This document shows, piece after piece, positions 10,660 through 45,975 of a stretch of DNA of 45,975 nt. This DNA is from Alphaproteobacteria bacterium (GTDB taxonomy: Bacteria > Pseudomonadota > Alphaproteobacteria > UBA6615): contig JABJAG010000221.1 in NCBI GenBank assembly GCA_018666195.1, forward strand, positions 1 through 45,975, written 5' to 3'. Within the stretch, counting starts at the first letter, position 1. Each line of letters opens with the position of its first letter. Below the pieces are notes generated by a model that did no database searches, was not told where the DNA came from, and was given only the letters and a program-made list of their open reading frames with translations. The translations under genes were made by a program, and so were the position numbers.

Positions 10660-10666
10660 CCGCACC

Positions 10667-15142: not shown

Positions 15143-15738
15143 CCCAGTACCTCGCGAACTTTCGCACCCAGAGCCGGCAAGACCTCATTCGTGAACCACG
15201 GGTTCTTGCGTTCCCATGCATTGGTCCGCCAACTCGGGTGAGGCAGCGGCAGCGCGTCCGGCACATACGCACGCCAGTCGGCGACGGCTGCGGTCATCGT
15301 CTTGTAGCCCGGCAGATAATGGTGAATCGCATGGCTACCGACAAAGAGCGTCAACGCCACCTTCGGCAGGACAGCCCGAATCCGGTCATGCCACAGGGGG
15401 GCACATTCCGGGCGCGGCGGCGCATCGCCACCACTGTTCAGACGCCCGGGGTAGCAGAACCCCATGGGCAACAGCGCCAGACTGTCCGGGTCATAAAAGG
15501 TGTCGCGGTCCACCCCGAGCCAATCGCGCAAGCGATCGCCGGAGGGATCATTGAAGGACAGATCGCTGTTATGTGCTTTCGTACCCGGCGCCTGACTGAT
15601 GATCAGAATCCGCGCACCCGCACCCGCGCGCACCAGAGGCAGCGGACCCAGCGGAAGATGGGCGGCGCAAACCGCACAGGCGCGCGCTTCGCGCAGGACC
15701 TGCTCCAGATTTTCGTCAACACTGCCAGGCGCCATCAC
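15139..15738 (-). CDS. uracil-DNA glycosylase superfamily protein
   Basis: 199 aa. Motif-A-like ILIISQAPG and motif-B-like LPLPHPSWRT. A CAVC pair lies near the N-terminus. Confidence 0.75.
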   Translation of the reverse strand: MMAPGSVDENLEQVLREARACAVCAAHLPLGPLPLVRAGAGARILIISQAPGTKAHNSDLSFNDPSGDRLRDWLGVDRDTFYDPDSLALLPMGFCYPGRLNSGGDAPPRPECAPLWHDRIRAVLPKVALTLFVGSHAIHHYLPGYKTMTAAVADWRAYVPDALPLPHPSWRTNAWERKNPWFTNEVLPALGAKVREVLG

Positions 15739-15745
15739 AGGGCGC

Positions 15746-16483: not shown

Positions 16484-16546
16484 GCAGTCGGTATCCAGTG
16501 AAACAACGGGCCAGGACGGCAACCTAACGAGGACCCCGAAATCGAA

Positions 16547-17107
16547 TCAATCCTGATCGGCCGAGACATAGGACCCAAGCGGATAAGTGACCTCGGGAAT
16601 ATAGCTCGACCCCGAGCGCCCCAGATTTGAGGAATAAAGCACAAAGGAGCCCACCTGAAAGGGCGGCGCCTGAAACCCGGCATGCTCAGCAACAAACGGG
16701 GCAACCCGGGCCGGACTGGTGTCCCGACAACGGGCCAGAGTGACATGAGGGTGAAAGCGACGGGATTCCGGTGCCAAACCGGCGCGCTGACACACGGTCT
16801 CGATCCGGGCCTGAAATCTGGCCAACGCTTCGTTCCGCGTAACGCCGGCCCACAAGGCACGGACCTGACCACGGGATTCAAAATGCCCAACACCTGACAC
16901 CTGAATTTCGAATGGATCATCAGCAACACGCCCAAGCGCGTCGTGCACATCTTCGGCCACATCTTCGTTGACCTCGCCAATGTACCGCAATGTCAGGTGC
17001 ATACTCTCCGCCGGTATCCAGCGCGCGCCAGGCACTTGTCCGCGCAAGCCGGTCAGGCGCACCCGCAACTCTGCAGGCAGATCGAACGCGACAAAAAGCC
17101 GGATCAA
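16547..17107 (-). CDS. thpR: RNA 2',3'-cyclic phosphodiesterase (2H phosphoesterase, ThpR/LigT)
   Basis: 186 aa. Two HxT motifs (HLTLRY and HVTLAR). Start overlaps the FIST gene stop by 4 nt. Confidence 0.85.
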   Translation of the reverse strand: MIRLFVAFDLPAELRVRLTGLRGQVPGARWIPAESMHLTLRYIGEVNEDVAEDVHDALGRVADDPFEIQVSGVGHFESRGQVRALWAGVTRNEALARFQARIETVCQRAGLAPESRRFHPHVTLARCRDTSPARVAPFVAEHAGFQAPPFQVGSFVLYSSNLGRSGSSYIPEVTYPLGSYVSADQD

Positions 17108-18231
17108 CCCTGGACCTCCTCCGGCTCAGGGAACACGGTCAGCACACCGGTATAGGTGTAGAGACGGTCGTGCGAAATCTCGCCATTCCCAAAAAACCCC
17201 ACCACCGGGACATCACCAAACACTTCGGCGATCATCGAGAGTTCCTGAGATCCCGGCCCGAACTGATGCGGACCACGTGCCACACAACTGTGATAGACGG
17301 CGCCACGCAGATTGGTGCCCGCGCGGCGCTTCAGATCGGCCAGCATCCGCTGCATATCCTCAACCGCGCTCGCAGCGTCACGACGCACAAACATCAGCCT
17401 GTCGCCCACGCGCAATTCCTCTGCGACTGCGATCCAGCCCTGTTCGACGTCAAAGCCGACAAGGTTGCGCACCAGATAGTCCGCCGTGTCCGACCCCGAG
17501 ACCGGGATTGCGGCGTGGACATAGCCCGCCAGGCGTCGCAAATCCCGCGCGAGCAGTTCTCCTACGTCCTCCTTGAGGACGTCGAGCGCATTCCGGCCAT
17601 CGAGACCCGAGACAATGCCCTCTTCCATGGATGAGATAGTGTGAACAGTCCCAATGGGCGAGCAGCCCTGGGTCAGAGCTGTCGCAACAGGCACGTCATC
17701 GGTGAATAGAATGCCCGCCAGGCCTGAGGGGGCATCTGCAGCACCCAGGAGCGGGGTCGCCGCAGCACCTGAAGTCAGCGCCCCCACAAGATACGCGCCC
17801 GTCGATTTGGCCAGTTCCGGCATGGCATCCAGCACAGCACTTTGCCGCGGATCAGCATGCACAATCGCAAGCTGGGCATTGCTTGCCACCTGCAGATCAG
17901 TTGATTCAGGTTCACCGGGAAATGCCGCCGCGGCTGTGTCAGGCACATCAAGCACCATCAACGCCATCGCCGGTGTGTCAAAATATTCAACACCTGTCGC
18001 ACAGATCGCCGGAGCGACCGCGCCCCGCCATGTACGCAAGCCCGTACGTTCACGTACATAACTCAGAATGTCCTCAACCTCCGCACCAAGCGGGTCGGTG
18101 ACATAAAGCAGGCCTGTTCCCCGAACCGGACCTTCAAGTTGATCAAGGCAATGTTCGGCAAGATCTCGCCAGCCCGTCCAGGCCACACCATTTTCGGTCA
18201 CACCGGCATGGGCAAATGGGAAAGTTGTCAT
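17104..18231 (-). CDS. FIST (N+C) domain sensory protein
   Basis: 375 aa soluble protein. C-terminal GFFGNGEI motif and overall layout resemble FIST_N/FIST_C proteins. Judged by eye only. Confidence 0.65.
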   Translation of the reverse strand: MTTFPFAHAGVTENGVAWTGWRDLAEHCLDQLEGPVRGTGLLYVTDPLGAEVEDILSYVRERTGLRTWRGAVAPAICATGVEYFDTPAMALMVLDVPDTAAAAFPGEPESTDLQVASNAQLAIVHADPRQSAVLDAMPELAKSTGAYLVGALTSGAAATPLLGAADAPSGLAGILFTDDVPVATALTQGCSPIGTVHTISSMEEGIVSGLDGRNALDVLKEDVGELLARDLRRLAGYVHAAIPVSGSDTADYLVRNLVGFDVEQGWIAVAEELRVGDRLMFVRRDAASAVEDMQRMLADLKRRAGTNLRGAVYHSCVARGPHQFGPGSQELSMIAEVFGDVPVVGFFGNGEISHDRLYTYTGVLTVFPEPEEVQG

Positions 18232-18250
18232 CTGTTAAACCATTCCGATC

Positions 18251-18889
18251 TTACTTTGAGGAGGACGGCCCCAAACGTCCAAGTTCTTCGAGCACATAAG
18301 GTGTGATGCGATCGACGATTCGTGCGACCCCGGCCGCATTGGGATGAATGCCGTCCGCCTGGTTCAGCTCAGCCTCTGCAGCCACACCCTCCAGAAAAAA
18401 CGGGTACAGAGCGACGTTATGCTTTTGCGCCAATCGCGCATACATCCCGTTAAAGGAATCACCGTATTCACGCCCAAGATTGGGTGGCGCGCGCATGCCC
18501 GTGAACAGAACCTTCGTGTCCCGGGTGCCGAGTTCGCGCAACATCGCATCGAGATTGGCCTCTGTCTCAGCTGGATCAATGCCGCGCAACCCATCATTGG
18601 CCCCGAGCTCAAGGATCACAAGATTGGCATCTGGCGGCATAGACCAGGCCAGCCGCGCACGACCGCCGGCCGTTGTATCTCCCGACACGCCGGCATTGAT
18701 GACCCTGGCATTGAGCCCGTGCGCGACCAGAGCGCGTTCCAACTGCAACGGAAAGGAATCCACTTCTTCAAGTCCGTAACCTGCTGACAGGCTATCGCCG
18801 AATGCAACGATGACTGTCTCGTCCGCAGCAACACCAGCAGACGATATCGCCAGAAACGCAGCGAAATCCAGAACAGCACGGCGCACCAT
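18251..18889 (-). CDS. SGNH/GDSL arylesterase (TesA-like) with signal peptide
   Basis: ORF 18251..19045 trimmed to MVRRAVLDFAAFLAISSAGVAA. Has block I FGDSLSAGYG, block III GANDG and block V DGIHPN. Confidence 0.85.
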   Translation of the reverse strand: MVRRAVLDFAAFLAISSAGVAADETVIVAFGDSLSAGYGLEEVDSFPLQLERALVAHGLNARVINAGVSGDTTAGGRARLAWSMPPDANLVILELGANDGLRGIDPAETEANLDAMLRELGTRDTKVLFTGMRAPPNLGREYGDSFNGMYARLAQKHNVALYPFFLEGVAAEAELNQADGIHPNAAGVARIVDRITPYVLEELGRLGPSSSK

Positions 18890-33299: not shown

Positions 33300-34172
33300 A
33301 TGACCGGAAATCTTCGCGGCATTGCCTGGATGGCAACAACGGGTGTTCTGTTCGTCGCTGTCACCGGAATTGTCCGCCATCTGGGCACAGATATGAGTCC
33401 GGTTCAGGCCGCGTTCATACGCTATCTATTCGGTCTTCTTTTGCTGCTACCTGTCTTCGTTCGGATGGGAAGCCTTCGGCGGCCAGCTTCGGTCATCGGA
33501 CTGCATGCATCACGCGGAGTTATCCATGGAATCGGGGTCATGCTCTGGTTCTTTGCCATGGCAAACATCCCCATCGCAGAAGTAACCGCACTGGGGTTCA
33601 CCGCACCTATTTTCACCACCGTCGGCGCCGCATTATTTCTGGGAGAGCGTTTGCGCCTCTATCGGATCGGGGCTGTGCTGATGGGGTTTGGCGGCGCACT
33701 GGTTGTGCTGCAGCCCGGATTTCAGGAAATAAATATCGGCTCCATTGCTCAGCTCACCGCCGCGCCGTTGTTTGCGGCGTCTTTCCTGATCGCCAAGCGA
33801 TTGACCAATGTCGAGTCCAGTACGGCGATCGTCGCTTATCTCTCGGTCTTTGTGACTTTGGTTCTGTTGGTCCCAGCCATTTATGTCTGGCGAACGCCAA
33901 CCGCGATTGAACTGGTCTGGCTGTTCGCGACAGCGGCTCTCGCCACACTTGGCCACTACACACTGACTCAGGCTTTTCGCGCCGCAGACATTACCGTGAC
34001 GCAGCCTATTCAGTTTCTACAACTTGTCTGGGCGACCATTCTGGGGCTGGCCGTGTTCGGAGAACAGCCGGAAATCTGGACCTGGGTGGGCGGCGGTATG
34101 ATTGTCGCGAGCGCAACCTTCATCGCACACCGGGAAGGAAAACGCCGCAAAGACCGGGTTGAGAACCTTTAA
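33300..34172 (+). CDS. DMT (EamA) family transporter
   Basis: 290 aa, ten hydrophobic segments, duplicated EamA layout. Confidence 0.85.
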   Translation: MTGNLRGIAWMATTGVLFVAVTGIVRHLGTDMSPVQAAFIRYLFGLLLLLPVFVRMGSLRRPASVIGLHASRGVIHGIGVMLWFFAMANIPIAEVTALGFTAPIFTTVGAALFLGERLRLYRIGAVLMGFGGALVVLQPGFQEINIGSIAQLTAAPLFAASFLIAKRLTNVESSTAIVAYLSVFVTLVLLVPAIYVWRTPTAIELVWLFATAALATLGHYTLTQAFRAADITVTQPIQFLQLVWATILGLAVFGEQPEIWTWVGGGMIVASATFIAHREGKRRKDRVENL

Positions 34173-34300
34173 CGAAAGACGACCGCTGCAGCTGCCAGAA
34201 CCAGCATAGCCACCGCACAAAGCCCCACCAAAACCAAAACCACCGCCAGAACCAGGCCCTGCATGATGGGCTTCTGCTCTACTATTTCCTGTTCTTCCAT
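34169..34300 (-). CDS. candidate 43-aa single-pass membrane peptide
   Basis: Below the ORF-track cutoff. Translated by hand as MEEQEIVEQKPIMQGLVLAVVLVLVGLCAVAMLVLAAAAVVFR. GAGGGGAAG Shine-Dalgarno-like sequence 7 nt upstream of the ATG at 34300. Confidence 0.25.
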   Translation of the reverse strand: MEEQEIVEQKPIMQGLVLAVVLVLVGLCAVAMLVLAAAAVVFR

Positions 34301-34382
34301 AAATCCGCTTCCCCTCGCGAACGTCCATAGCCTGCATAACGCACCACGGGCCTGCTCCGCCAGCCGCTTCTCTATCCACAGT

Positions 34383-34772
34383 ATGGTTCTTCAACCGCAT
34401 AGACCCATGTATGGTAACTGCGAATCACACACTTCTTCGGAGAATCCGTTGAACTTCGTTTTCGATGTCGGCTTTTTCGCCGCAGCCTTTGTCCCCACCT
34501 TTCTCGTCAGCCGGATCGTGTTCCGGCTCTCCAAGTCGTGGGAGGGGCACTGGCAACGTCTCGTCCTCGCAAATATTGCATCGGGTATCATCTGTATTCT
34601 AGTGTTTGTGGTATCGGGCTCATGGTTCGCTGCCGGATTTGATTTCCCCTGGCTTTACGGCGTTGCGAATTTCGCTCTCGCGCAAACCATCTGGCTTGCG
34701 GTTGATGTCTACTCCGACTGGATCAACAAGCGCCTGACCAACGGAACCAACCCCGACATCAGCAAAAGCTGA
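34383..34772 (+). CDS. hypothetical membrane protein
   Basis: ORF 34263..34772, with likely start at the Met at 34383 or 34407. Three or four hydrophobic segments and lower GC than neighbouring genes. Confidence 0.45.
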   Translation: MVLQPHRPMYGNCESHTSSENPLNFVFDVGFFAAAFVPTFLVSRIVFRLSKSWEGHWQRLVLANIASGIICILVFVVSGSWFAAGFDFPWLYGVANFALAQTIWLAVDVYSDWINKRLTNGTNPDISKS

Positions 34773-34786: not shown

Positions 34787-35296
34787 ATGGGCACTGACGG
34801 AAGTTCTGCGGCAAACGCAGATATCGATATCGGAAAATTCTGGAACGCGGTGGGGCAACGCGCCGTGGCCGCAACGATTGTGACCGCACGAGGCAGCGCC
34901 GGGCCAGCCGGATTTCTGGGCCTTTCAGCCACCCATGTCTGTGCTGCCCCGCCAACCATGCTGGTCTCCATCGATGCAAAAACCTCCGCGCTGGGTGCGA
35001 TCCGGGATTCGCGGCATTTCGCGATCAACTACCTGCCAGGCGGAACGGAAGACGTGGTCGATCTCTTCTCCGGGAAAAGCGACATCAAGGGCCCTGCCCG
35101 TTTTGAGGCGAACCGATGGGGTTATCTGGCAACCGGCGCGCCTGTGTTCAATGGCGCCGTTGGCGTGATGGATTGCATCCTGGAAGAAACCATCGAGCGA
35201 CACGGAACCATTCTTGCCCTCGGTCGCGTGGTCGCAGTTTCCGGTGACCCGGAAGCGGATCCGCTGGTGTATTTCCGAGGTGGTTACCTGACCTGA
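34787..35296 (+). CDS. flavin reductase family protein (FMN-binding split barrel)
   Basis: 169 aa. Pattern VTARGSAGPAGFLGLSATHVCAAPPTMLVSID ... RHFAINYL ... FNGAVGVMDCILEE is typical of HpaC/NtaB-like reductase components. Confidence 0.85.
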   Translation: MGTDGSSAANADIDIGKFWNAVGQRAVAATIVTARGSAGPAGFLGLSATHVCAAPPTMLVSIDAKTSALGAIRDSRHFAINYLPGGTEDVVDLFSGKSDIKGPARFEANRWGYLATGAPVFNGAVGVMDCILEETIERHGTILALGRVVAVSGDPEADPLVYFRGGYLT

Positions 35297-35305: not shown

Positions 35306-36655
35306 TTACTGCGCCGCCTGATCTTCGACTTCAGCAAAAAACTGATTTTCGGGGCGGGGCAAACCAAGGTTTTCACGCAAGGTGGGGCCTTCATATTCAC
35401 GGCGCAGCAGCCCACGACGCTGTAGCTCTGGTGCGACACGATCCACGAACAGATCGAGACCTTCGGGCAGGAACGGGAACATAATCGTAAAGCCATCACT
35501 GGCACGGTTTTCGATCCACTCTTCCATTTCATCGGCAATGGTCTCGGACGTACCAACCAACGCAAGACCGGAATAACCGCCCATCCGCTGCGCCAGCTCT
35601 CTGACAGTCAGATCTTCTTGTTCGGCCATGCGAATGGCCCGCTCGCGGCCACTTTTGGAGGCATTGGACTCGGGAATCTCAGGCAGCGGACCATCAAGCT
35701 CGAACTTCGACGCGTCGGTCCCAAGCTGAATCGACAGTGATGCAATTGCACTATCCAGATGCACTTTGGAATCCAGCACAGCACGTTTCTCGCGCGCTTC
35801 CTCAACCGTATCGCCAACCACAACAAGACAGGCCGGCAGAATTTTCAGATGATCAGGATCGCGACCGAGTGTTTTCATCCGGCCCTTCACATCCGCATAA
35901 AACGCGCGCCCGTCTTCCATCGTGCGTTGGGCTGCAAAAATGGCATCTGCAGTTTCTGCTGCCAGCTGCCGTCCGGCTTCCGAGCCACCGGCCTGAACAA
36001 TCAGGGGCCAACCCTGAACCGGTCGTCCAATATGCAATGGACCACGAACATTAAAGTACTCCCCCTTGTGATCGAGTGTATGGAGTTTCTCCGGATCGAA
36101 GAAAACACCGGATTCCACATCGCGAATGAATGCATCATCCGCCCAACTGTCCCACAGGCCGGTCACCACGTCGTAAAATTCACGGGCACGTCGGTAGCGG
36201 TCAGCGTGATCGAGATGCTCATCCAAACCAAAATTTTTCGCCGCATCCGGGTTTGAAGTTGTGACGATATTCCAGCCAGCGCGCCCACCCGAAATATGAT
36301 CGAGTGAGGCAAACCGGCGCGCCACATGAAACGGGTCATCAAAGGACGTCGAACCGGTCGCAATCAGGCCGAGATTTTCTGTTGCCATGGATAACGCGGA
36401 CAACAGCGTGAATGGTTCAAACGATGTCGCTGTCGAACTGCGCTTGAGCGCATCCATCGGCATGTTCAGAAGGGCGAGATGATCAGCCATGAAAAAGGCA
36501 TCGAACCGCGCCTCTTCAAGTCGCTGAGCAAACTTCACAATGGCCCGGAAGTTGAAGTTCGCATCGGGCGTGCCGCCGGGGTAACGCCAGGCCCCGGTGT
36601 GGATGCTGATCGGGCGCATGAATGCCGCAAGATGAAGCTGTCGTGAAGCCGTCAT
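35306..36655 (-). CDS. FMN-dependent monooxygenase, NtaA/SnaA/DszA (LLM) family
   Basis: 449 aa. LHLAAFMRPISIHTGAWRYP ... FDAFFMADHLAL ... GRAGWNIVTS-like motif (GRAGWNIVTTSN). Confidence 0.9.
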   Translation of the reverse strand: MTASRQLHLAAFMRPISIHTGAWRYPGGTPDANFNFRAIVKFAQRLEEARFDAFFMADHLALLNMPMDALKRSSTATSFEPFTLLSALSMATENLGLIATGSTSFDDPFHVARRFASLDHISGGRAGWNIVTTSNPDAAKNFGLDEHLDHADRYRRAREFYDVVTGLWDSWADDAFIRDVESGVFFDPEKLHTLDHKGEYFNVRGPLHIGRPVQGWPLIVQAGGSEAGRQLAAETADAIFAAQRTMEDGRAFYADVKGRMKTLGRDPDHLKILPACLVVVGDTVEEAREKRAVLDSKVHLDSAIASLSIQLGTDASKFELDGPLPEIPESNASKSGRERAIRMAEQEDLTVRELAQRMGGYSGLALVGTSETIADEMEEWIENRASDGFTIMFPFLPEGLDLFVDRVAPELQRRGLLRREYEGPTLRENLGLPRPENQFFAEVEDQAAQ

Positions 36656-36712
36656 AATTGTTTACCTATTCTCATCACGTGTCATCGAACAGCACATCGT
36701 CCGCTTGAGGGA

Positions 36713-39028
36713 TCAATCCAGAGGCCCGAAATCCGGAGGTGACACCCGTCGCCGGGAGACAGCCTCATAAGCTGATGCAATTCGCAGCAAACTGTCCTCC
36801 GTACCCGGCTCCGAGCGGAACACGAGCGAGAACGGCAGTCCCGGTGCCGCCAACGCAGTGGGCTCCCGCGACGGCGAGGAAACATACTTTGTTCCATCTT
36901 CATTCAACTTGTAGACAGGGTCGTAAGCTGTCGAGACATAACCGGCAGGGACCAACATTTCAGTCAGGCCCGCGTTCGGGCCATAGAGGCTCTCGGGTCG
37001 CAAATTGTTGGACGTATCGTGCTGCAATGGGCCACCAATAATTCCGGGTGGCCATGGCGTGTGCAGACGCACGAACGCGTTCAGATTGTTCTCGATCAGC
37101 ACCATCATATCAACACGGCGGAGCAGCTCGCGCAGCATGATCCGCTCATTCACGCCCTGGCGCCCATCAAGCGCATTGCGAGGGTCAGAGGTTTCCTCCC
37201 AGTTCAGGAACCCTGAACGCTGGTCGTCGCCCCAGAACTTGGACCGCGCGTTCAAGGCGGCCCAATTGTCGAGTGCCTCATGGAAACCTGCCGCCTTCCA
37301 ATCTTCCGCCCGGCGCATCAGATACTGACTGATATGAAAACGGAAGGTCGTTGCAAGTTCCTGGTGCTGGATCGTTGCGATGTCGAAATTGGCCGGCGGC
37401 TCGACGGCTCCTTCGGCGAGTGCAACACAATAATCAATGGAATCCATCGTACCCTTGCCGAAGGTTTTCCCCGGCTGGAATTCCGTCGGACGGATCGCGT
37501 CTTCAAACTCCTTAAATAAAGGCGTCCCATCCGGGGCCAGACGGAAAAGCACATCCGGCATGAAAACCGGCAGAAGCTTTGCCAGCGCCCGCCGGAAGTC
37601 GGGCACCAACTGCTCCATGTCCGGATCCGGTGTCCAGAGCAAATCACCGGACTCGACCAGTGTGGCCCCCAGTCGCCCACCAAGGACATCCTTGATCTCG
37701 GCTGTTACGGCATCGACGATGGGTTTCTCGGTCAGAGAGTCCTTTGGATAGACCATCGACTCCCGCACCACGCCGAGGCGAATGCCCTTGAGCGCGCCGG
37801 CCGAAACATCATTGGAAAGGTGGGACGCATAGGGCGTATCGAGAACGGAGGAACGCGGCACGGTTGTATAGGGGTCACGCGGGTCATAATAACCGTTCTC
37901 GGAATCCTTGAGCGCATCAAGAATCTTCGCGCAATCGGGCAGCGAGCGGCCGTGAATACCTGAGCGATCGCAATAGATGTCCGCGCCAATCGCACCACCA
38001 TCAAAGCCGAGCATCGACTTGTGGGGCAGGATCAGGGCCACCGAATTGTGATTGGAGGGACCACGGCAGGAGGCGCGGGTTTCCTCACCCAAACTCGCCA
38101 TCACCAGATTGGTACTGACCGACAGAGCCGAGCCCGAACTCGATCCCAAAGAGGCCGCACGGGTCGTGTCATAGGGGTTAGAAGGATTTCCGCCCCAGGT
38201 CGCCCGCTGATAGCCCAGCGTCGAAGGCAACACCTTGTCCGGGTGATTGCGACCACCCGGATCGCCAGCACGGCCGTTATATTCCGTGTTCACAGCCTTG
38301 GCGAAAATGATCGCACCCTTTCTGCGCAGCTGGTCAACCAGCACGTGATCACGGGCGGGGAAATCATTGTCGTAGGCAGCATCCGCACCCCCGGTGGAGC
38401 GCATATCTATCGTGTCGAAGGGATCCTTAAAGGAGAAGGTCACCCCATACATCGGCAAGGCATCCAAATCGGGTTCGGTGCCATATTCCGCGTCCAGTTC
38501 TGCCGCTCGCTCGAGCGCATCAGGGAACTGTCGGAACATCTCGCACACCGGCGGTGCGCCAGCCGGGAGCGGTCCCTCAGAAGGGTTCTTGTCGAATTCA
38601 CCCCAGCAGGTAACCGAACGTTCGCCACGGATATTGAGGGTGGATAAAGCGTTGACCTGCCCGGCGCTGGGAACGCCGGCAATCATACCAAACTGCTGTT
38701 CGACATCCGGCTTGGAGGCCGTGGCCTCCATACGCCCGTATTCCAGCGGTGGACCTTTGTATTTGTCCAGATCAGGCAGAACGTCTGATACGGGAATGGT
38801 CTCGGTCGGAAATTTCAGCGGGGCGCCAGCACGCACGACGCCCGTGGACGCCGGGACGGATTTGCCGTCCTCCGTCACCAGCATGCTGGAAACACCATTA
38901 TAGGCCCGAGCACGATCAATATACTGCTGCACAACCGCAACCAGCGTGGTTTCCCCCGCGCGAATAGCTGCGTGCAAATCGTCGATTGAAGCCTCAACGA
39001 CGTCAAATTTATCCGAACCCGTTCCCAT
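36713..39028 (-). CDS. amidase-signature family protein, unusually large (771 aa)
   Basis: Start chosen at the ATG at 39028, with GAGGGA Shine-Dalgarno 5-6 nt upstream. Lys motif FSFKDPFDT and a Gly/Ser-rich signature SLGSSSGSALSVSTNLVMASLGEETRASCRGPS. Carries large extra N-terminal and C-terminal regions. Confidence 0.85.
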   Translation of the reverse strand: MGTGSDKFDVVEASIDDLHAAIRAGETTLVAVVQQYIDRARAYNGVSSMLVTEDGKSVPASTGVVRAGAPLKFPTETIPVSDVLPDLDKYKGPPLEYGRMEATASKPDVEQQFGMIAGVPSAGQVNALSTLNIRGERSVTCWGEFDKNPSEGPLPAGAPPVCEMFRQFPDALERAAELDAEYGTEPDLDALPMYGVTFSFKDPFDTIDMRSTGGADAAYDNDFPARDHVLVDQLRRKGAIIFAKAVNTEYNGRAGDPGGRNHPDKVLPSTLGYQRATWGGNPSNPYDTTRAASLGSSSGSALSVSTNLVMASLGEETRASCRGPSNHNSVALILPHKSMLGFDGGAIGADIYCDRSGIHGRSLPDCAKILDALKDSENGYYDPRDPYTTVPRSSVLDTPYASHLSNDVSAGALKGIRLGVVRESMVYPKDSLTEKPIVDAVTAEIKDVLGGRLGATLVESGDLLWTPDPDMEQLVPDFRRALAKLLPVFMPDVLFRLAPDGTPLFKEFEDAIRPTEFQPGKTFGKGTMDSIDYCVALAEGAVEPPANFDIATIQHQELATTFRFHISQYLMRRAEDWKAAGFHEALDNWAALNARSKFWGDDQRSGFLNWEETSDPRNALDGRQGVNERIMLRELLRRVDMMVLIENNLNAFVRLHTPWPPGIIGGPLQHDTSNNLRPESLYGPNAGLTEMLVPAGYVSTAYDPVYKLNEDGTKYVSSPSREPTALAAPGLPFSLVFRSEPGTEDSLLRIASAYEAVSRRRVSPPDFGPLD

Positions 39029-39029
39029 T

Positions 39030-39098
39030 ACGTCCCTCATGAATTGATTGGACCAATGATGTCTGGGCCAAACCAAAAAATCCAGTCATGAGGGACGT
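39030..39098 (-). promoter_or_regulatory. 13-bp perfect inverted repeat / RNA hairpin covering the amidase ribosome-binding site
   Basis: ACGTCCCTCATGA (39030..39042) and TCATGAGGGACGT (39086..39098) are exact reverse complements 43 nt apart. In the minus-strand mRNA the 3-prime arm contains the GAGGGA Shine-Dalgarno and ends 1 nt before the amidase ATG. Confidence 0.5.
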
Positions 39099-39112
39099 GA
39101 ACCTGCTCTTTG

Positions 39113-40399
39113 TTAAGCCTTGGAAAGCGCCTGATCGAGATCTGCGATAATGTCATCAGCGTGCTCGATCCCGATCGACAACCGCACATAACCCGGTGTG
39201 ACACCGGCTTGCAGCAGTTCCTCTGCCTGCATCTGACTGTGGGTCGTTGACGCCGGATGAATGGCCAGAGAGCGTGCATCACCAATATTGGCCACGTGAT
39301 AGAGCAGCTCCAGGGCATCGATAAACTTCTTGCCCGCTTCCAGACCGCCCTTCACTTCGATTCCGACCAGACCGCCGTAACCGCCATTCAGATGTGCATC
39401 CGCACGTTGACGGGATTCACCATCCATCAGACCCGGATAGATCACACGCTCGACCTTGTCATGACCATCAAGGAACGCAGAAACCCTAGCTGCGTTTTCG
39501 CAATGGCGCTCCATACGCAGCGGCAACGTTTCCAGGCCCTGAATGAACTGGAATGCGTTCTGAGGCGACATGGCCGCACCGATGTCACGCAACAGCGTGA
39601 CACGTGCCTTGAGAATGTAGGCAATCGGCCCCAGCGGCTTCACCGCCTCTGTCCAGACGGCACCGTGATAACTCGGATCCGGTTCGTTCAGCATCGGGAA
39701 ACGGTCTGCATGGGCTTCCCAGTCAAAATTACCGCCATCGATCAGCATGCCGCCAATCGAGGTGCCGTGACCGCCGATATATTTGGTGGTCGAGTACATG
39801 ACGATAGCCGCACCGTGATCGAGCGGTCGGCACAGCAAAGGTGCCGCCGTGTTGTCCATGATCAATGGCACCCCAAGCTCACGGCCGATGGCTGCGACGT
39901 CTGCAATCGGGAACACTTGCAGTTTCGGGTTCGGCAGGGTTTCGGCGTAGTAGGCGCGCGTCTTGTCATCCGTCGCAGCCCGGAAGGCTTCCGGGTCGGC
40001 CGGGTCCACGAAGCGGGCTTCAATCCCCATGTCGCGCATGGTGTTCTTAAACAGATTCCACGTGCCGCCATAGATGTCTGTGGAGCAGACAAAATTGTCG
40101 CCCGCGCGCGCGATGTTCAGAATCGAGAACATAGATGCTGACTGGCCCGATGACAGGCCAAGTGCGGCAACACCGCCCTCGATCGCAGCCAGCCGCTGCT
40201 CGAGCACATCCACGGTCGGGTTCATGATCCGGGTGTAAATGTTCCCCAGTTCCGCCAGTGCAAACAGGTTTCCTGCATGTTCGGTATCGCGGAACTGGTA
40301 GCTCGTCGTCTGATGAATCGGCACGGCAACCGACCCGGTGGTCGGGTCAGCACGATGGCCGGCATGCAAAGCGAGTGTCTCGGGGTGCTTGGTTGTCAT
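39113..40399 (-). CDS. metY: O-acetylhomoserine aminocarboxypropyltransferase / sulfhydrylase (PLP-dependent)
   Basis: ORF trimmed to MTTKHPETLALHAGHRADPTTGSVAVPIHQTTSY. Has STTKYIGGHG (PLP-Lys) and the C-terminal LSIGIEHADDIIADL typical of the Cys/Met-metabolism PLP family, MetY type. AGGAG Shine-Dalgarno upstream. Confidence 0.9.
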   Translation of the reverse strand: MTTKHPETLALHAGHRADPTTGSVAVPIHQTTSYQFRDTEHAGNLFALAELGNIYTRIMNPTVDVLEQRLAAIEGGVAALGLSSGQSASMFSILNIARAGDNFVCSTDIYGGTWNLFKNTMRDMGIEARFVDPADPEAFRAATDDKTRAYYAETLPNPKLQVFPIADVAAIGRELGVPLIMDNTAAPLLCRPLDHGAAIVMYSTTKYIGGHGTSIGGMLIDGGNFDWEAHADRFPMLNEPDPSYHGAVWTEAVKPLGPIAYILKARVTLLRDIGAAMSPQNAFQFIQGLETLPLRMERHCENAARVSAFLDGHDKVERVIYPGLMDGESRQRADAHLNGGYGGLVGIEVKGGLEAGKKFIDALELLYHVANIGDARSLAIHPASTTHSQMQAEELLQAGVTPGYVRLSIGIEHADDIIADLDQALSKA

Positions 40400-40491
40400 A
40401 GTCGAACTCCTGATCTTCGTGCGTGTGCCATAGCCAGCCAGAACGCCGCCCCTATTACACATGTATTTTGGTGTTATTATTCTGTTAATAC

Positions 40492-40526
40492 GGACAATAC
40501 TCGTATTTTTTGAATTGTCCAGTCAA
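40492..40526 (-). promoter_or_regulatory. candidate promoter/operator of metY
   Basis: AT-rich gap. Inverted repeat GGACAAT-N15-ATTGTCC (40492..40520) lies next to a minus-strand TTGACT -35-like hexamer (40521..40526). Confidence 0.3.
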
Positions 40527-40545
40527 ACCAACGGATGAAAGCATA

Positions 40546-41241
40546 TTACCAATCGAATCCTGGCCCTGAACGCGCCGCCCCGTCATGCAGATCAAGGCAG
40601 CGATTCATCCAGGCGTGGATTGGGTCGTCAGGCGTGACCAGCGCGAAGGGGCTCATCTTGCGTGCCCAGATAAAAGTGCCCATGACCAGATAGTCGGCAT
40701 AGAGCGGCGCAGCACCTCCCAGAAACGGCTGATCGGCCAGCATCTGGCGCAGCGGACCCAACCGTTCGCGGAGCTCAACCCGGCGTTCCTCCCGCCCCTT
40801 CTCCAACGCGACGATGCTATTTCCGAAACGCTTCGCCCGGGTTTCGGCAAACCAGTCCTTGTCCTCCGGCACGAGATGATCGTGGATATCCCGCAGGATC
40901 ATCGGCATCACGAACAAATGCAGTCGCGTCCGCCACCATTGGCTGACAAAGGCCGTGAGGGCATGACCTGCGGCACCTCCAAACAGGGAGGGCCGGTCGG
41001 GATAGGTTGTTTCGAGATACTCTGCGATGGCCCAGCTGTCGCAGACCCAGGTCTCGCCGTCACGGATTACCGGCAGAGTCGGAAAAGAGCCGTCACCTAT
41101 CCTCGGGATGCTCGTAAACGGTGTCGGAACGGTTTCGAATGAGAGACCCTTGTGGGCCAACGCCGGGCGTATGCGCCAGCAATGGCTGGAAAACCGGCGG
41201 TCATCCGCACCAACCAGATCATAGAGAACGATCCTAGACAT
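40546..41241 (-). CDS. glutathione S-transferase family protein
   Basis: 231 aa. Thioredoxin-like N-terminal domain (IVLYDL...SSHCWRIRPALAHKGLSFETV...FPTLPVIRDGETWVCDSWAIAEYLE) plus a helical C-terminal domain. Starts 8 nt after the NHase alpha stop. Confidence 0.8.
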   Translation of the reverse strand: MSRIVLYDLVGADDRRFSSHCWRIRPALAHKGLSFETVPTPFTSIPRIGDGSFPTLPVIRDGETWVCDSWAIAEYLETTYPDRPSLFGGAAGHALTAFVSQWWRTRLHLFVMPMILRDIHDHLVPEDKDWFAETRAKRFGNSIVALEKGREERRVELRERLGPLRQMLADQPFLGGAAPLYADYLVMGTFIWARKMSPFALVTPDDPIHAWMNRCLDLHDGAARSGPGFDW

Positions 41242-41249
41242 CAGAGCGG

Positions 41250-41894
41250 TCAGGCAGGTTCAACCGGCAGCGCGCATCCGACCACAGAATCACGGGTGAT
41301 CAGCGCGGCGAGATCGTCTTCGCTCAGGCCTTCTGTGCCCGCGGGGCGCATGGGCATGATCACGTAACGCAGATCCGCATTGCTGTCGTGAACGGCAATA
41401 TCGACGGCATCGGGAATATCCACGCCGAATTCGCGCAACACCTTGCGCGGCTCGCGCACAGCCCGGGACCGATAGGCCTTGCTGACATAGAAGGCCGGAG
41501 GTTCCCCGAGCAAAGATCGCGGATAACAGGAACACAGGGTGCACACGACCATATTGTGCCGCTTCGGGGTGTTTTCGATGGTCACAAGCGCAGCTTCGGT
41601 GGCCTCAATACCAAGTTCGGCAGCCGCGGCCTTGGTATCGCTCAGCATCCGTTCTTTGTATGCGGGGTCGACCCAAGCTCGGGCAATCATCCGGGCGGCC
41701 TGATGCGGGCTGCCGCGCTCGTTGAATTCCATACGGGCGCGAATCTCATCCGCCGTCATCACCCCCTGCTCGATCAGCAGGCTCTTCAACGCGAGAAAGC
41801 GCGCCTCACCTTCGGTGAGTTCAAGGTCATCATCCTCGCGGGTTGGTGCATGGTCGTCATGATCGTGATCATGATTGTGTTCGTCACCGTTCAT
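41250..41894 (-). CDS. nitrile hydratase family alpha subunit, cobalt-type metal site, His/Asp-rich N-terminal tail
   Basis: Start at MNGDEHNHDHDHDDH, where its ATG shares one base with the upstream stop (TGATG). Metal motif VVCTLCSCYPR. Collinear with Co-NHase alpha (LIEQGV, AWVDPAYKERML, YRSRAVREPRKVL, RPAGTEGLSEDDLAALITRDS). Confidence 0.9.
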   Translation of the reverse strand: MNGDEHNHDHDHDDHAPTREDDDLELTEGEARFLALKSLLIEQGVMTADEIRARMEFNERGSPHQAARMIARAWVDPAYKERMLSDTKAAAAELGIEATEAALVTIENTPKRHNMVVCTLCSCYPRSLLGEPPAFYVSKAYRSRAVREPRKVLREFGVDIPDAVDIAVHDSNADLRYVIMPMRPAGTEGLSEDDLAALITRDSVVGCALPVEPA

Positions 41895-42199
41895 CACGAA
41901 TCCTCTCCGGCCGGAGCCAGCCAATGATCATAGATTTCAATTTCGAGAACATCTCCGGGCGCGCCGTCATAATCGGGCCAGATATCATCCTGTCTGAACT
42001 GCACCCGATACAACGGAATCGGCGGCAGACCCCAGCGGCCATAGGCCTTGTCCTCCGGGTTTTCGAACAAGCCGCAGAAGCGTTCAATGGTGCCCGTCTT
42101 ATGGCGCACATAAGTCGGGGTACGCACATGGCCGGGCTTGCCGATATCAAGGATACGCACCCTGTCTCCCACGCTATAGCTTGCGGTTGGCTCAGACAT
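41894..42199 (-). CDS. nitrile hydratase beta subunit, C-terminal-half protein (101 aa)
   Basis: MSEPTASYSVGDRVRILDIGKPGHVRTPTYVRHKTGTI...PLYRVQF...IW matches the C-terminal SH3-like half of NHase beta. Its start overlaps the upstream stop by 8 nt (ATGTCTGA). Confidence 0.85.
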   Translation of the reverse strand: MSEPTASYSVGDRVRILDIGKPGHVRTPTYVRHKTGTIERFCGLFENPEDKAYGRWGLPPIPLYRVQFRQDDIWPDYDGAPGDVLEIEIYDHWLAPAGEDS

Positions 42200-42509
42200 G
42201 ATCCCGTGTCCCTGCCGCCAGAATTTCCTGGGCTCGCTTGTCGAACGTATCCGCGTCGAGCACACCCTTCTCGATCAACAACCGGATCATCCCATCAAGG
42301 CGCCGACCATAGAATGTCGAGTTGGCGTAATATTCAGCGGGCATCTCTTCCACCGTGCGGCGGAATTCATCGGTGACGACGACACCCTTCACCTGCAGCA
42401 GATTGAAGGCAGCGATCATCTGCTTTTCCCAAAACAACTGATCGCGATCCTCCTGAGGCACGGCCCCGGCCGGTTCACCGCCAATATCGGTTACGAGCTT
42501 GTCCACCAT
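42192..42509 (-). CDS. nitrile hydratase beta subunit, N-terminal-half protein (105 aa)
   Basis: MVDKLVTDIGGEPAG...LFWEKQMIAAFNLL...DEFRRTVEEMPAEYYANSTFYGRRLDGMIRLLIEKGVL matches the helical N-terminal half of NHase beta. AGGA Shine-Dalgarno upstream. Confidence 0.85.
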   Translation of the reverse strand: MVDKLVTDIGGEPAGAVPQEDRDQLFWEKQMIAAFNLLQVKGVVVTDEFRRTVEEMPAEYYANSTFYGRRLDGMIRLLIEKGVLDADTFDKRAQEILAAGTRDHV

Positions 42510-42543
42510 GGAATTGTCCTGCTTGTGGTTTTTTGTCCTGCCT

Positions 42544-42819
42544 TCAAAGGCGTCGGTACAGTTTCACCGCCGAATAGAGCGCCGCCAGAGTTGCCACGAA
42601 AAACCCGCCAAACAACGCGACGGGTGAGACGTCCCATGCAAATTGTCGGGCGAGATCGTAAACAACATAGATTGAAAATGTCAGCGCCAGACCGAGCATG
42701 AATGTCTTGCCGCGCAGCGCAATCACCAGAAAAATGCCGGCAATCACGGCCTCAAGTGCGATGGAGACGAATTGAAGGTTTTCGATCATAGCTGAAAGCC
42801 TACCCCAATCCGTCTCCAC
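42544..42819 (-). CDS. hypothetical small membrane protein (3 TM, 91 aa)
   Basis: GTG start preceded by an AAGGA Shine-Dalgarno that overlaps the ALDH stop codon. An alternative ATG lies at 42789. Three hydrophobic segments, no known motif. Confidence 0.55.
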   Translation of the reverse strand: METDWGRLSAMIENLQFVSIALEAVIAGIFLVIALRGKTFMLGLALTFSIYVVYDLARQFAWDVSPVALFGGFFVATLAALYSAVKLYRRL

Positions 42820-42827
42820 GCGAGTCC

Positions 42828-44270
42828 TTAAAGGCCAGCCTGGGTGATGAACTTGGTGTTCAGGTAGGCATCGATGGCCTCCGAACCACCTTCCGAGCCA
42901 TAGCCCGAATCCTTGACACCACCGAACGGTGTTTCGATCAACCCGATCCCATGATGGTTGATCGAGACCATGCCGCTTTCAAATGCCGAGCCAATAGCTT
43001 CGGCGGTCTTTGTGGACTTGGTGTAAGCATAAGCGGCCAGCCCGTAATCAAGGCGATTGGCTTCGGCGACAACGGCATCAAAATCCGAGAAGGATGAGAT
43101 CGGTGCGACCGGACCAAACGGCTCTTCATTCATGATCCGGGCATCCAGCGGCACATCTGTCATCACCGTCGGCTCAAAGAAGTAACCCTTGTTGCCCTTG
43201 CGCTTGCCACCCGTCTGAAGTGTGGCGCCCTTGCCAACGGCATCAGAGACAAAGCCCTCGATCGCATCGATCCGACGGTCATGCGCCAGCGGGCCCATCT
43301 TGTTGTCCGGGTCCATGCCATCACCGACCGGCAGAGTGGATGCGAATTCGGTGAAGCCCTCAACGAACCGGTCATAATGCTTTTCGTGGACCAGGAAGCG
43401 GGTCGGGGACACGCAGACCTGTCCGGCATTGCGGAATTTGTTGGCCGTCAGCACCTTGAGCGCAACTTCCACATCTGCATCTTCAAACACAATGGCCGGA
43501 GAATGGCCACCCAGTTCCATGGTCACCCGCTTCATGTGCTGACCGGCCAGCGCCGCCAACTGTTTGCCAACGGCTGTCGAGCCGGTGAAGGTCACCTTGC
43601 GAATGGTGCGATGGGGAATCAGATACTCGGAAATCTCCGCCGGGACGCCATATACCAGATTGACCACACCGTCGGGCAGCCCAGCATCAACGAAGCATCG
43701 GACCAATGCCGCGCAACTCGCAGGGGTCTCTTCCGGGCCCTTCAGAATGATCGAGCAACCTGCCGCAACAGCGCCCGAGAGTTTACGAACAGCCTGATTG
43801 ATCGGGAAGTTCCAGGGCGTGAAGGCCGCGACCGGACCCACCGGCTCTTTCACCACCATCTGAGTCACGCCACCCATACGCGCCGGGATCACCCAACCAT
43901 ATGTCCGGCGGGCTTCTTCAGCGAACCAATCGATAATGTCGGCCCCAAACAGGGTTTCAAGCTTGGCTTCGCCAAGCGGCTTGCCCTGCTCCATCGTCAT
44001 CATCGCGCCAATTTCATCGGCGCGCTCGCGAACCAGATTGGCCGCTTTGCGCATGACGTTGTAACGCTCCATCGCGGAGACTTCTTTCCAAACGCGGAAA
44101 CCCGTTTCTGCTGCTTCCAGGGCAGCATCCAGATCCGCGATCCGGGCATGGGCCACATTGCCGATCGGCTCTTCGGTCGCCGGGTTGAGAACGTCGATCG
44201 TCTCTCCGGCCGCAGCTGGCATCCATTTGCCGGCGATGTGAAGTTCGGTGTTCGGGTAGGCGTTGGTCAT
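42828..44270 (-). CDS. NAD(P)-dependent aldehyde dehydrogenase, succinate-semialdehyde dehydrogenase-like
   Basis: 480 aa. [20 protein letters not shown], catalytic Glu MELGGHSP, catalytic Cys [21 protein letters not shown]. Confidence 0.9.
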
Positions 44271-44378
44271 TGAGGTGTTCCCTGAGAAAGTCGTTTCGGT
44301 TTGAATTTCACGTAGTATGCCACAGCCGGGCGCAGGAAAAGAGTCCGACCGGTCGCAAATTGCGGGTTTGTTTTCGCC

Positions 44379-45062
44379 CTAGGCGGCTTCCGCCGCCGCG
44401 CTGGCCCGCGCGTTGAGATCGTCAAAGTCATCCGGCCAGTTATCCGCCAGCCAACGCAGATAGGTCTTCATATTCGCCGGGTCGATATGCAGCGAGTTCT
44501 TGATCTTGTCGACTTCCGGCTGGGCCTCGATGGTCAATTTGAGGGAGTCATTGAAGCGGTTGATCATGTTGAACATGCTACAGATCAGGGTGAGCTCGAC
44601 GATCTCACCCTCGTTGAACTGTGCCTGCACCCGTTCATAAACATCATCACGCGTTGCCGCCGTGTTTTTGGTCATATGTTCGGCCCATTCGATAGCAGCC
44701 CGCTCACGTTCGTCGAAAAGGTCCGAGGTCAAGTAATCGTCGGACGACATCGCGATCACCTGCTCATGGGTAATCCCGGCAGCCTCGCCCAGCGCCGTGT
44801 TGTGGGCAAAGCAGTATTCGCATCCATTGATGTGACTGGTCTTGATGATGACCATTTCCTTGATCTTGCCGGACACGCGCACGCCTGCCCATTCGCGCTG
44901 GTTGCCCGCCTGAAACGGCAGAAACAGCATCGCAAGATAAGGTGCATGCGCCATCGTGCGATAGGCGTTCGGCACCCGGCCAATCATGCTTGTGACGGCC
45001 CCAAAAAAGTCCTGCAGTTCTTCGGGTGCGTTCTCTGGATTTATGACTGGCAATCTCGCCAT
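44379..45062 (-). CDS. carboxymuconolactone decarboxylase (AhpD-like) family protein
   Basis: ORF 44379..45350 trimmed to MARLPVINPENAPEEL, with a GGGAGAG Shine-Dalgarno upstream. CMD-family motif SHINGCEYCFAHN. Confidence 0.8.
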   Translation of the reverse strand: MARLPVINPENAPEELQDFFGAVTSMIGRVPNAYRTMAHAPYLAMLFLPFQAGNQREWAGVRVSGKIKEMVIIKTSHINGCEYCFAHNTALGEAAGITHEQVIAMSSDDYLTSDLFDERERAAIEWAEHMTKNTAATRDDVYERVQAQFNEGEIVELTLICSMFNMINRFNDSLKLTIEAQPEVDKIKNSLHIDPANMKTYLRWLADNWPDDFDDLNARASAAAEAA

Positions 45063-45111
45063 GGTGTTCTCTCCCCTTCTTCGTGTTTGTCCGGCGAAGC
45101 GAGTTTTCTCC

Positions 45112-45975
45112 CTAAAAAGCCCGCGCGTATTTCGCCAACATGTCTTCGTCAACTTCGACACCAAGACCCGGCGCATCCGGGGCCGAGATATGGCCGCCAC
45201 GCACAGTGATCGGATTGCGAACCACATCTGTCGCCAGATAAGGCGTTGTCGGGCTGACACCCCAGGCCAATGTCGGTGCAGCGGCCGCCAGATGCAGCAC
45301 GGCAGCACTGGACACGCTGGTCTCTGCGGTCTTGCCCGCCAAGTTCGCATTCATTCCGAGTTCGGCAAACAGCTTCGTTGCTTCATTGGCGCGCGTCACA
45401 CCACCAAGCTTGATCATCTTGACGCTGCCGCCCTGGGCCGCCCCCATCGCGTGATGACGACGCACATCATCAAAACTGTGCAGGCCTTCATCCGCCGCAA
45501 TCGGACAGGATGCTTCACCAGCGATCATCGCCATGCCCTCCACATCGTGCCCGTGGAGCGGTTGTTCGAGAAAATCGAGCGCCGAACTGGCACCACGCGC
45601 AAACGAGACCGCCTCATCCCGGTTCCAACCCTGATTGGTGTCCGATGACAATTGAACCGCACCGGCAAGTGCTTCCCCGATCGCATTGGTGCGTTCGATA
45701 TCCTGATCCACCGGCTTCCCGCCAACCTTGATCTTCATGGCCGCATAACCTTCGGCCGCGCCATCCCGCGCGTCACCCACATCCGTCGAGACATCACCGG
45801 TTGCCAGCATCTTGACCACCGGCATACGTTCACGCTGCACGCCACCGAGAAGTTCCGAAACAGACATTTTCTGAGCCTTGCCCGCGAGGTCATAGAGCGC
45901 AATTTCGAGCACCGTCTTGGCACTGGCGTTGCCATAGAGGCGCCAGTCCATTTCTTTCATGTTGTCGATGAAGTC
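45112..45975 (-). CDS. mandelate racemase/muconate-lactonizing enzyme (enolase superfamily) protein, 5-prime end outside window
   Basis: The reading frame stays open to the window edge. Has KIKVGGKP, metal ligands in SDTNQGW / LEQP / ADEG, and KLGG. The N-terminal capping domain is missing from the window. Confidence 0.85.
   Translation of the reverse strand, partial: DFIDNMKEMDWRLYGNASAKTVLEIALYDLAGKAQKMSVSELLGGVQRERMPVVKMLATGDVSTDVGDARDGAAEGYAAMKIKVGGKPVDQDIERTNAIGEALAGAVQLSSDTNQGWNRDEAVSFARGASSALDFLEQPLHGHDVEGMAMIAGEASCPIAADEGLHSFDDVRRHHAMGAAQGGSVKMIKLGGVTRANEATKLFAELGMNANLAGKTAETSVSSAAVLHLAAAAPTLAWGVSPTTPYLATDVVRNPITVRGGHISAPDAPGLGVEVDEDMLAKYARAF

Follow-up and report, generated by a model that had tools for sequence, protein, structure and literature searches.

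A putative cobalt-type, split-beta nitrile hydratase and a conserved 771-residue amidase in a variable, probably catabolic locus of a marine alphaproteobacterium

Three-subunit, cobalt-type nitrile hydratases (Co-NHases) have so far been characterised in Streptomyces. The enzyme of Streptomyces canus, AnhDEA, has subunits of 21.3, 10.4, and 11.35 kDa, encoded in the order anhD-anhE-anhA with no activator (PMC7329996), and the toyocamycin nitrile hydratase (NHase) has subunits of 21.2, 10, and 11.4 kDa (PMC8574189). Enzymes of this kind are common in metagenomes and several close relatives of the one described here come from marine samples (e.g., Fram Strait), while the turnover of nitriles in seawater has been little studied. 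The window analysed here, the whole 45,975-nucleotide (nt) stretch of contig JABJAG010000221.1 from an alphaproteobacterial genome (GenBank assembly GCA_018666195.1), carries such an NHase on its minus strand, within a run of eleven co-directional genes that extends from an enolase-like gene to a luciferase-like monooxygenase, as established from the listing of open reading frames (ORFs) and profile searches. The locus is real but ordinary, with the NHase adding a new marine example to the three-subunit Co-NHases, and the run is best read, with a probability of about 0.5, as a variable catabolic locus of separately gained and lost modules, the core of which would be a two-step nitrile route followed by an oxygenation.

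The three NHase genes lie in the order beta-N (42192..42509, 105 amino acids (aa); PF21006, 51 bits), beta-C (41894..42199, 101 aa; PF02211, 74 bits), and alpha (41250..41894, 214 aa; PF02979, 251 bits against a gathering threshold of 27), all on the minus strand, where beta-C shares 8 nt with beta-N and 1 nt with alpha. This split-beta layout, with the two halves of the beta chain separate and both upstream of alpha, is found with the same gene calls in relatives. The metal site of alpha (VCTLCSCYPR) contains the cobalt-type VCTLCSCY motif and aligns to Co-NHase structures, which provide the best PDB matches (198–224 bits, compared with 173 bits for the gamma chain of thiocyanate hydrolase), and both beta-type subunits likewise score higher against NHase than against thiocyanate hydrolase (beta-N, 33 and 22.6 bits; beta-C, 59 and 50 bits). 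Beta-N aligned to residues 15–89 of the beta chain of the Pseudomonas putida Co-NHase, retaining the arginine of DEFR with Trp72 replaced by Arg, and beta-C aligned to residues 129–219 of the same chain, retaining the arginine of GHxR (here GHVR); the two conserved arginines of NHase beta chains contact the oxidised cysteines of the active site. No match to accessory or activator protein models was detected among the ORFs of the cluster, to which that scan was confined. Based on family membership and the intact catalytic residues, we infer a Co-type, split-beta, three-subunit NHase.

Amongst approximately 100 alpha genes that were collected, the CSCYPR variant of the metal site accompanies the upstream split-beta layout in several phyla, while the classical NHases have Trp where CSCYPR has Arg, and by this distribution the variant is a hallmark of the subgroup and no pointer to a particular substrate. 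The Arg-for-Trp changes of the pocket (CSCYPR in alpha and Trp72 to Arg in beta) had been considered as a sign of an anionic substrate, a reading that was dropped because CSCYPR goes hand in hand with the split-beta layout in different phyla, an actinomycete locus included. The N-terminus of alpha (41850–41894) bears a His/Asp-rich tail, MNGDEHNHDHDHDDH, that resembles the N-terminus of the P. putida Co-NHase alpha chain and may provide built-in metal handling in an enzyme for which the cluster shows no activator gene.

The predicted partner of the NHase is an amidase-signature (AS) hydrolase of 771 aa (36713..39028, minus strand), which exceeds the PF01425 gathering threshold (81 bits, threshold 27) and has both the Lys/cis-Ser/Ser triad and the G-S-S-x-G-S motif of the family, with Lys201, Ser296, and Ser320 invariant or nearly so across 29 sequences with identities as low as 34%. 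The start codon that gives 771 aa is common to all homologues, and the giant amidase remarked on in an earlier note on this DNA is present with its length corrected from that of a 787-aa ORF opening with TTG. A first AlphaFold2 (AF2) model of the amidase was unusable (predicted local distance difference test (pLDDT), 47), and a deeper alignment gave a usable one (pLDDT, 72.8; predicted template modelling score, 0.82); because this model corresponds to Tse8 and to peptide amidase along its full length, the protein is predicted to have an AS fold with insertions. Peptide amidase and Tse8 are also the nearest relatives of the amidase, which is not glutaminase-like. Identities within the amidase family are 71–95% over the top ~80 metagenome loci (habitats unchecked), with only a handful of full-length clusters below 62% identity, and several arginines are invariant (R210, R290, R355, R422, and R573). 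De novo clustering of neighbouring genes at 83 amidase-homologue loci gave no dominant partner, the commonest being TctC (13 loci). On a single long contig of the K_MB42-like lineage (L174, 12445–14761), the amidase is called as two pieces of 542 and 244 aa, the result of either a frameshift (a pseudogene) or an assembly error.

The gene that ends the run (35306..36655, minus strand, 449 aa; TIGR03860, 550 bits against a cut-off of 279.7) is predicted to encode a luciferase-like monooxygenase of the NtaA/DmoA/DszA/YtnJ group dependent on reduced flavin mononucleotide (FMNH2), with PDB matches of 368 bits to YtnJ/MoxC, 346 bits to NtaA, 321 bits to DszA, and 236 bits to DmoA. A flavin reductase gene (34787..35296, plus strand; PF01613, 93 bits; RutF/HpaC-like, under the NCBIfam cut-offs) had been described as divergent from it; the two genes are instead convergent, with their 3′ ends 9 nt apart. 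A monooxygenase of the NtaA/DmoA family with a reductase gene at hand corresponds to a two-component system, and the pairing recurs elsewhere (L087, L092, L148, and L163). The reductase is the likely supplier of FMNH2 to the monooxygenase.

The adjacency of these enzymes recurs in other loci. The monooxygenase gene adjoins that of the amidase in L087, L090, L091, L092, L148, and L163, and in L148 and L163, where the intergenic DNA is AT-rich, the monooxygenase (72% identity) and the reductase (52–53%) lie on either side of the amidase, the genes being ordered differently. Two further layouts place the amidase beside a split NHase, here with just 43–52% identity in alpha: amidase-alcohol dehydrogenase (ADH)-[beta-N::alpha fusion]-beta-C (L089) and TRZ/ATZ-type hydrolase-amidase-beta-N-beta-C-alpha (L141). 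The fusion in L089 (12094–13390) is 321 aa long and is followed by a separate beta-C of 112 aa, with a 770-aa amidase and a zinc-type ADH adjoining. Homologues at 83–87% alpha identity (L003 and L011) are located in unrelated contexts, and in L003 a CN_hydrolase and an amidohydrolase are encoded beside the NHase-clade member. A further split-beta NHase (L005, 9381–14136; alpha 73% identical) is followed by genes for a cupin, TctC, an AtzG-like protein, a true AtzE-family amidase (713 bits; cut-off, 461), and an AtzH-like protein, a set suggestive of an N-rich substrate (ureide or triazine-like) for that lineage.

Synteny was assessed by tblastn, comparing every cluster protein with the homologue loci in a matrix, and by blastn. 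In transcriptional order, the run comprises the enolase-like gene, a CMD/AhpD-like gene, an aldehyde dehydrogenase (ALDH), a small membrane protein with three transmembrane (TM) segments, the three NHase genes, a glutathione S-transferase (GST), MetY, the amidase, and the monooxygenase. The earlier note had presented it as one linked supercluster of twelve genes with short gaps throughout. The genes it named and their families were all recovered on the minus strand and supported by profile searches, though the count comes to eleven, and the linkage into a single unit is not supported by the comparison with relatives. The homologues with 93–97% alpha identity are from metagenome-assembled genomes of uncultured marine Alphaproteobacteria, and it is only in such close relatives (alpha at least 93% identical) that the neighbourhood is conserved, the modules differing even there; conservation in related genomes, proposed beforehand as a check on the linkage, was thus found at close range and not for the run as a whole. 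A blastn search of the central 5 kb against plasmids returned matches at the level of the ALDH and no cluster.

The variation involves nearly every part of the run. The same genes in the same order are present in L007, where the small membrane-protein gene gave no match. In three relatives (L001, L002, and L012), a 387-aa S9/FrsA-like hydrolase occupies the place of the ALDH and the membrane protein, and HTTM fragments lie between MetY and the amidase (L001, 12949–13874). L009, L173, and L175 are without the enolase-CMD-ALDH genes, and L087 has neither the enolase-like gene nor the ALDH. In L173 and L175, MetY and the amidase are moreover separated by an insertion of 6.8 kb (12221–18834) that contains a TPR/GT41 gene, two genes on the opposite strand, and an intact 464-aa HTTM (vitamin-K-dependent carboxylase-like) gene, and the MetY/amidase junction appears from these comparisons to be an insertion hot spot in the relatives. 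The GST is cleanly deleted and MetY reduced to two fragments (L008, 10620–10875 and from 10872) in L008 and L090, in which the NHase, amidase, monooxygenase, reductase, and EamA genes are all intact, amounting by gene content to a natural knockout of the GST-MetY module. Conversely, in L087 and L092, which represent a related genome with flanks syntenic to the window, the order membrane protein-GST-MetY-amidase-monooxygenase is kept and the three NHase genes are precisely absent (window positions 42550–41243), making the NHase genes a 1.3-kb cassette that either occupies or is missing from the place between the small membrane-protein gene and the GST. Collectively, the run appears to be a mosaic of at least five modules (enolase-like plus CMD; ALDH; membrane protein; NHase; GST plus MetY; amidase plus monooxygenase with the convergent reductase-EamA unit), amongst which only the NHase, the 771-aa amidase, and the flavin monooxygenase recur together.

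The spacing of the genes and the conservation of their upstream regions point in the same direction. Eleven genes on one strand exceed the expectation for random orientation, which does not by itself show one operon. Tight spacing is confined to the stretch from the ALDH to the GST, with successive gaps of 8–38 (depending on the start codon of the membrane protein), 34, −8, −1, and 8 nt, whereas the other gaps are wider (enolase/CMD, 49 nt; CMD/ALDH, 108 nt; GST/MetY, 146 nt; MetY/amidase, 84 nt; amidase/monooxygenase, 57 nt). The GST/MetY spacer (40400..40545, minus strand) is AT-rich (GC 0.42) and contains promoter-like blocks that are conserved in all of the relatives, L087 included, and overlap a sigma70-like match (TGGACA-16-TATTGT), together with the palindrome GGACAAT-N15-ATTGTCC. 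A search of Rfam at gathering and permissive thresholds returned no riboswitch or other RNA, and no SAM riboswitch before MetY.

The MetY/amidase spacer (39029..39112, minus strand) contains two boxes and an inverted repeat. The boxes, CTGGATTTTT and GACATCAT, are ~17 nt apart, some 60 and 35 nt upstream of the amidase start, and are invariant whatever gene precedes the amidase (the window, L001, L007, L008, L009, L087, L091, L092, and L173), while they are absent from the distant amidase homologues; they likely constitute a promoter or operator of an amidase-monooxygenase unit. The 13-bp inverted repeat (ACGTCCCTCATGA ... TCATGAGGGACGT; 39029–39100, minus strand) covers the Shine-Dalgarno sequence of the amidase and is predicted to form a hairpin (minimum free energy, −36.2 kcal/mol; z, −2.8), both arms of which are changed in L008 (CATCCC/GGGATG). 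As a conserved RNA, the hairpin was rejected when RNAalifold gave no consensus structure across nine loci, and for this reason the boxes are more likely DNA-level signals. Promoter and terminator scans of the locus gave counts no higher than shuffled sequence, and a terminator-like match inside the membrane-protein gene is probably due to chance. The conserved blocks and the L173 insertion would therefore define at least separate MetY and amidase-monooxygenase units, and the internal promoter-like blocks, the variable modules, the MetY pseudogene, and the 6.8-kb insertion are all at odds with a single operon or a conserved cluster.

Of the three pathways put forward in the earlier note, a plain conversion of nitrile to amide to acid is favoured by the comparative data for the NHase and the amidase and is the best supported, since both the enzyme class and the recurrent amidase link fit. 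In a first step, the presumably activator-independent Co-NHase would hydrate a nitrile to the amide, as family membership and the intact catalytic residues suggest; in a second, the Ser-cisSer-Lys amidase, based on its recurrent adjacency, would convert the amide to the carboxylate with release of ammonia; and in a third, given its conserved pairing with the amidase, the NtaA/YtnJ-type monooxygenase, with FMNH2 from the reductase, might oxidise the product or a related compound. The amidase-monooxygenase pair would be the older unit, with an upstream control region to itself; the NHase would be an optional feeder cassette, and the GST-MetY module a neighbour that is likewise optional and has a separate promoter. 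The sequence points to no particular substrate.

Several observations weigh against this route. The alpha subunit falls marginally short of the equivalog model for NHase alpha (TIGR01323, 242.0 against a cut-off of 249.85). L087 and L092 maintain the amidase without the NHase, and the amidase must therefore have a substrate of another origin; approximately 70 of the 83 amidase-homologue loci have neither an NHase nor a monooxygenase nearby, their neighbours being variable. No recognisable amide hydrolase is located beside the NHase in L011, L020, and L017. The structure of the transcription units, moreover, is indicated by sequence comparison alone (the promoter-like blocks and the opposite-strand insertion), which is as far as the possibility of independent units raised in the earlier note can be taken.

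An unlikely alternative, though one with some substance, is that the membrane protein-GST-MetY-amidase-monooxygenase genes, with the reductase and EamA, recover reduced sulfur from S-alkylated or conjugated compounds, the GST making or breaking a thioether, the amidase removing an acyl or amide group, the monooxygenase cleaving the C–S bond, MetY trapping sulfide or methanethiol as homocysteine or methionine, and the NHase extending the range to a nitrile-bearing precursor. MetY (39113..40399, minus strand, 428 aa) clears the cut-off for O-acetylhomoserine sulfhydrylase (TIGR01326, 609 bits against 495.1) with the pyridoxal phosphate motif STTKYIGGHG visible in its translation, and the GST (40546..41241, minus strand, 231 aa; PF22041/PF13409) is LigE/beta-etherase-like, with a PDB match of 147 bits to 4yam and a score below the NF042997 cut-off (184 against 440). 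The monooxygenase, reductase, GST, and MetY may serve in sulfur salvage: L087 and L092 hold GST-MetY-amidase-monooxygenase-reductase-EamA without the NHase, the E. coli EamA protein is a cysteine/O-acetylserine exporter, and the monooxygenase is close to both DszA and the B. subtilis YtnJ/MoxC, which we take to be the protein named CmoJ. A comparable pathway exists in B. subtilis, where S-alkylcysteine is salvaged by CmoJ, a homologue of YxeK and DszA, together with a flavin reductase and a deacetylation (PMC10863075). However, because NtaA is almost as close to the monooxygenase as YtnJ, specificity for C–S bonds is not established, and the cluster is without an acetyltransferase, a sulfoxidase, or a thiol reductase. 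The GST-MetY pair is gone from L008 and L090, which keep the amidase and monooxygenase, and lies 6.8 kb apart from them in L173; MetY, with its own conserved promoter-like region, may be a housekeeping methionine enzyme; and GST homologues at ~60% identity show no link to MetY, their neighbours being genes for an FAA hydrolase and an aldolase.

It is improbable that the genes are neighbours with no shared pathway, in a recombination-prone region where co-orientation has no meaning beyond the NHase operon, as might be argued from the presence and absence of modules, the insertions, and the pseudogene at this locus in close relatives, from the very variable neighbours of the amidase family, and from the numerous further small catabolic units in the window, along with its five EamA genes. 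The amidase-NHase and amidase-monooxygenase-reductase adjacencies, however, recur in distant loci with other gene orders and are therefore hard to explain without selection.

The chances are slim that both nitrogen and a volatile thiol are stripped from a nitrile- or amide-bearing organosulfur metabolite (e.g., methyl thiocyanate or X-CH2-CN). Ammonia would be released by the NHase and amidase, methanethiol or sulfide would arise through the NtaA/YtnJ-like monooxygenase or the spontaneous collapse of a thiocarbamate, and MetY would capture the thiol directly as methionine or homocysteine. Were this true, it would constitute a previously undescribed pathway for the salvage of reduced sulfur and nitrogen in oligotrophic Alphaproteobacteria.

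Very little credence attaches to the proposal of the earlier note that a thiocyanate-hydrolase-like enzyme with a split beta subunit releases carbonyl sulfide (COS), and hence sulfide that is fixed by MetY. The order beta-N, beta-C, alpha is also that of thiocyanate hydrolase, the chains of which are amongst the PDB matches (gamma, 173 bits; alpha, 50 bits; beta, 22.6 bits); an ungapped mapping places the three cysteines on gamma 128, 131, and 133 and the extra arginine on gamma 136; and MetY is two genes downstream of alpha, after the GST. A literature search on Arg136 of thiocyanate hydrolase gave nothing. The alpha subunit nonetheless misses the cut-off of the thiocyanate hydrolase gamma model by a wide measure (TIGR03887, 200.4 against 291.45), every subunit scores higher against Co-NHases, and the chains are shorter (105/101/214 aa, compared with 157/126/243 aa) and of toyocamycin type in size. 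No beta-carbonic anhydrase or COS hydrolase gene is present among the scanned ORFs of the window, in line with the absence remarked on beforehand, and in L003 a Pro_CA gene occurs only at a distance of 9 kb. An amide or C–N hydrolase partner, for which thiocyanate hydrolysis has no need, is found in about half of the NHase-clade contexts that were examined, and MetY is dispensable in L008.

Lastly, the assimilation of cyanide, in which MetY would make gamma-cyano-alpha-aminobutyrate from cyanide and O-acetylhomoserine for conversion to glutamine by the NHase and to glutamate by the amidase, agrees with the order NHase-GST-MetY-amidase and with a chemistry that has been published for an O-acetylhomoserine sulfhydrylase (Omura et al. 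2003, listed in PMC8191291), but is scarcely credible and is contradicted because MetY and the NHase are gained and lost independently (MetY without the NHase in L087 and L092, the NHase with a MetY pseudogene in L008 and L090), while their neighbourhood is limited to one close lineage, MetY scores as an ordinary O-acetylhomoserine sulfhydrylase, and the amidase is unlike glutaminase and widespread without either partner.

The remaining genes of the run belong to its more variable modules. The enolase-superfamily (MR/MLE) gene (45112..45975, minus strand; PF13378, 158 bits) has its 5′ end cut by the end of the window, and its full-length orthologue in L001 (366 aa) is below all NCBIfam equivalog cut-offs, the best being muconate cycloisomerase (199 against 335). 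The CMD/AhpD-like, YciW-related gene (44379..45062, minus strand, 227 aa; PF02627, 35.7 bits), for which every NCBIfam match is under its cut-off, travels with the enolase-like gene across relatives. The NAD(P)-dependent ALDH (42828..44270, minus strand, 480 aa; PF00171, 536 bits) is succinate-semialdehyde dehydrogenase-like, below the TIGR01780 cut-off (484 against 646). A trigonelline-like pathway composed of the monooxygenase, reductase, ALDH, and amidase was considered and set aside, given that the ALDH belongs to the variable modules and that the literature yielded no paper in support of the idea. The small membrane protein (42544..42789 or 42819, minus strand) has three hydrophobic segments and no family match in profile searches; its start is likely at 42789, giving the 81 aa seen in relatives in place of 91. 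The 81-aa orthologues directly precede the GST in L087 and L092, where the NHase is missing, and precede the NHase itself in L173 and L009; in genomes without enolase-CMD-ALDH, the unit begins with this gene.

On the plus strand, an EamA/DMT-family transporter (33300..34172; PF00892, 104 bits), a hypothetical gene of 169 aa (34263–34772), and the flavin reductase follow one another, with the EamA gene syntenic in L001, L007, L008, L009, L087, and L092. The 46-kb contig has five EamA/DMT genes, of which four form two pairs of neighbours (4210–6032, minus strand; 7418–9552, plus strand; and the single gene at 33300–34172, plus strand). A second luciferase-like monooxygenase (361 aa) heads a separate co-directional run (9574–14348, plus strand) that also encodes an alpha/beta hydrolase, an unassigned 334-aa protein, a short-chain dehydrogenase/reductase, and an FrsA-like esterase.

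The repeated occurrence of the NHase beside a very conserved 771-aa amidase provides a concrete enzyme pair and a candidate route for nitrogen scavenging. It also carries a caution, in that long co-directional runs need not be single pathways, the run here splitting into separately mobile modules.

Compared with the toyocamycin NHase of S. rimosus (ToyJKL) and AnhD/AnhE/AnhA of S. canus, the enzyme in the window shares two beta halves of ~100 aa, masses of ~21, 10, and 11 kDa, the CTLCSC Co-type motif, and no activator gene found in the cluster, with the beta-N-beta-C-alpha order as in S. canus, a likeness drawn from sizes, order, and motif; it differs in that the host belongs to the marine Alphaproteobacteria and not to the actinomycetes, and in that its neighbours are an amidase and a monooxygenase in place of a nucleoside-antibiotic cluster. 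With the thiocyanate hydrolase of Thiobacillus thioparus (ScnBAC) it has in common three NHase-family subunits, the subunit order, a three-Cys cobalt site, and, by the ungapped mapping, an Arg three residues after the third Cys as in gamma, whereas its beta-type subunits are shorter, it is closer to Co-NHases, and it is linked to an amidase with no COS hydrolase partner among the scanned ORFs. The classical NHase-amidase operons (Rhodococcus, Pseudomonas, and the aldoxime-nitrile pathways) similarly place an NHase beside an AS amidase, but in the window the beta chain comes in two halves, neither an activator nor an aldoxime dehydratase or a regulator is seen in the cluster, the amidase (771 aa, with large insertions) is from a separate, very conserved family, and a two-component flavin monooxygenase is attached. 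The salvage of S-alkylcysteine by CmoO/CmoJ and the YxeK system of B. subtilis resemble the locus in their DszA/YtnJ-group monooxygenase, flavin reductase, and amide-cleaving enzyme, while the window is without an acetyltransferase or a second monooxygenase in its cluster and its hydrolase is of the AS type and not M20.

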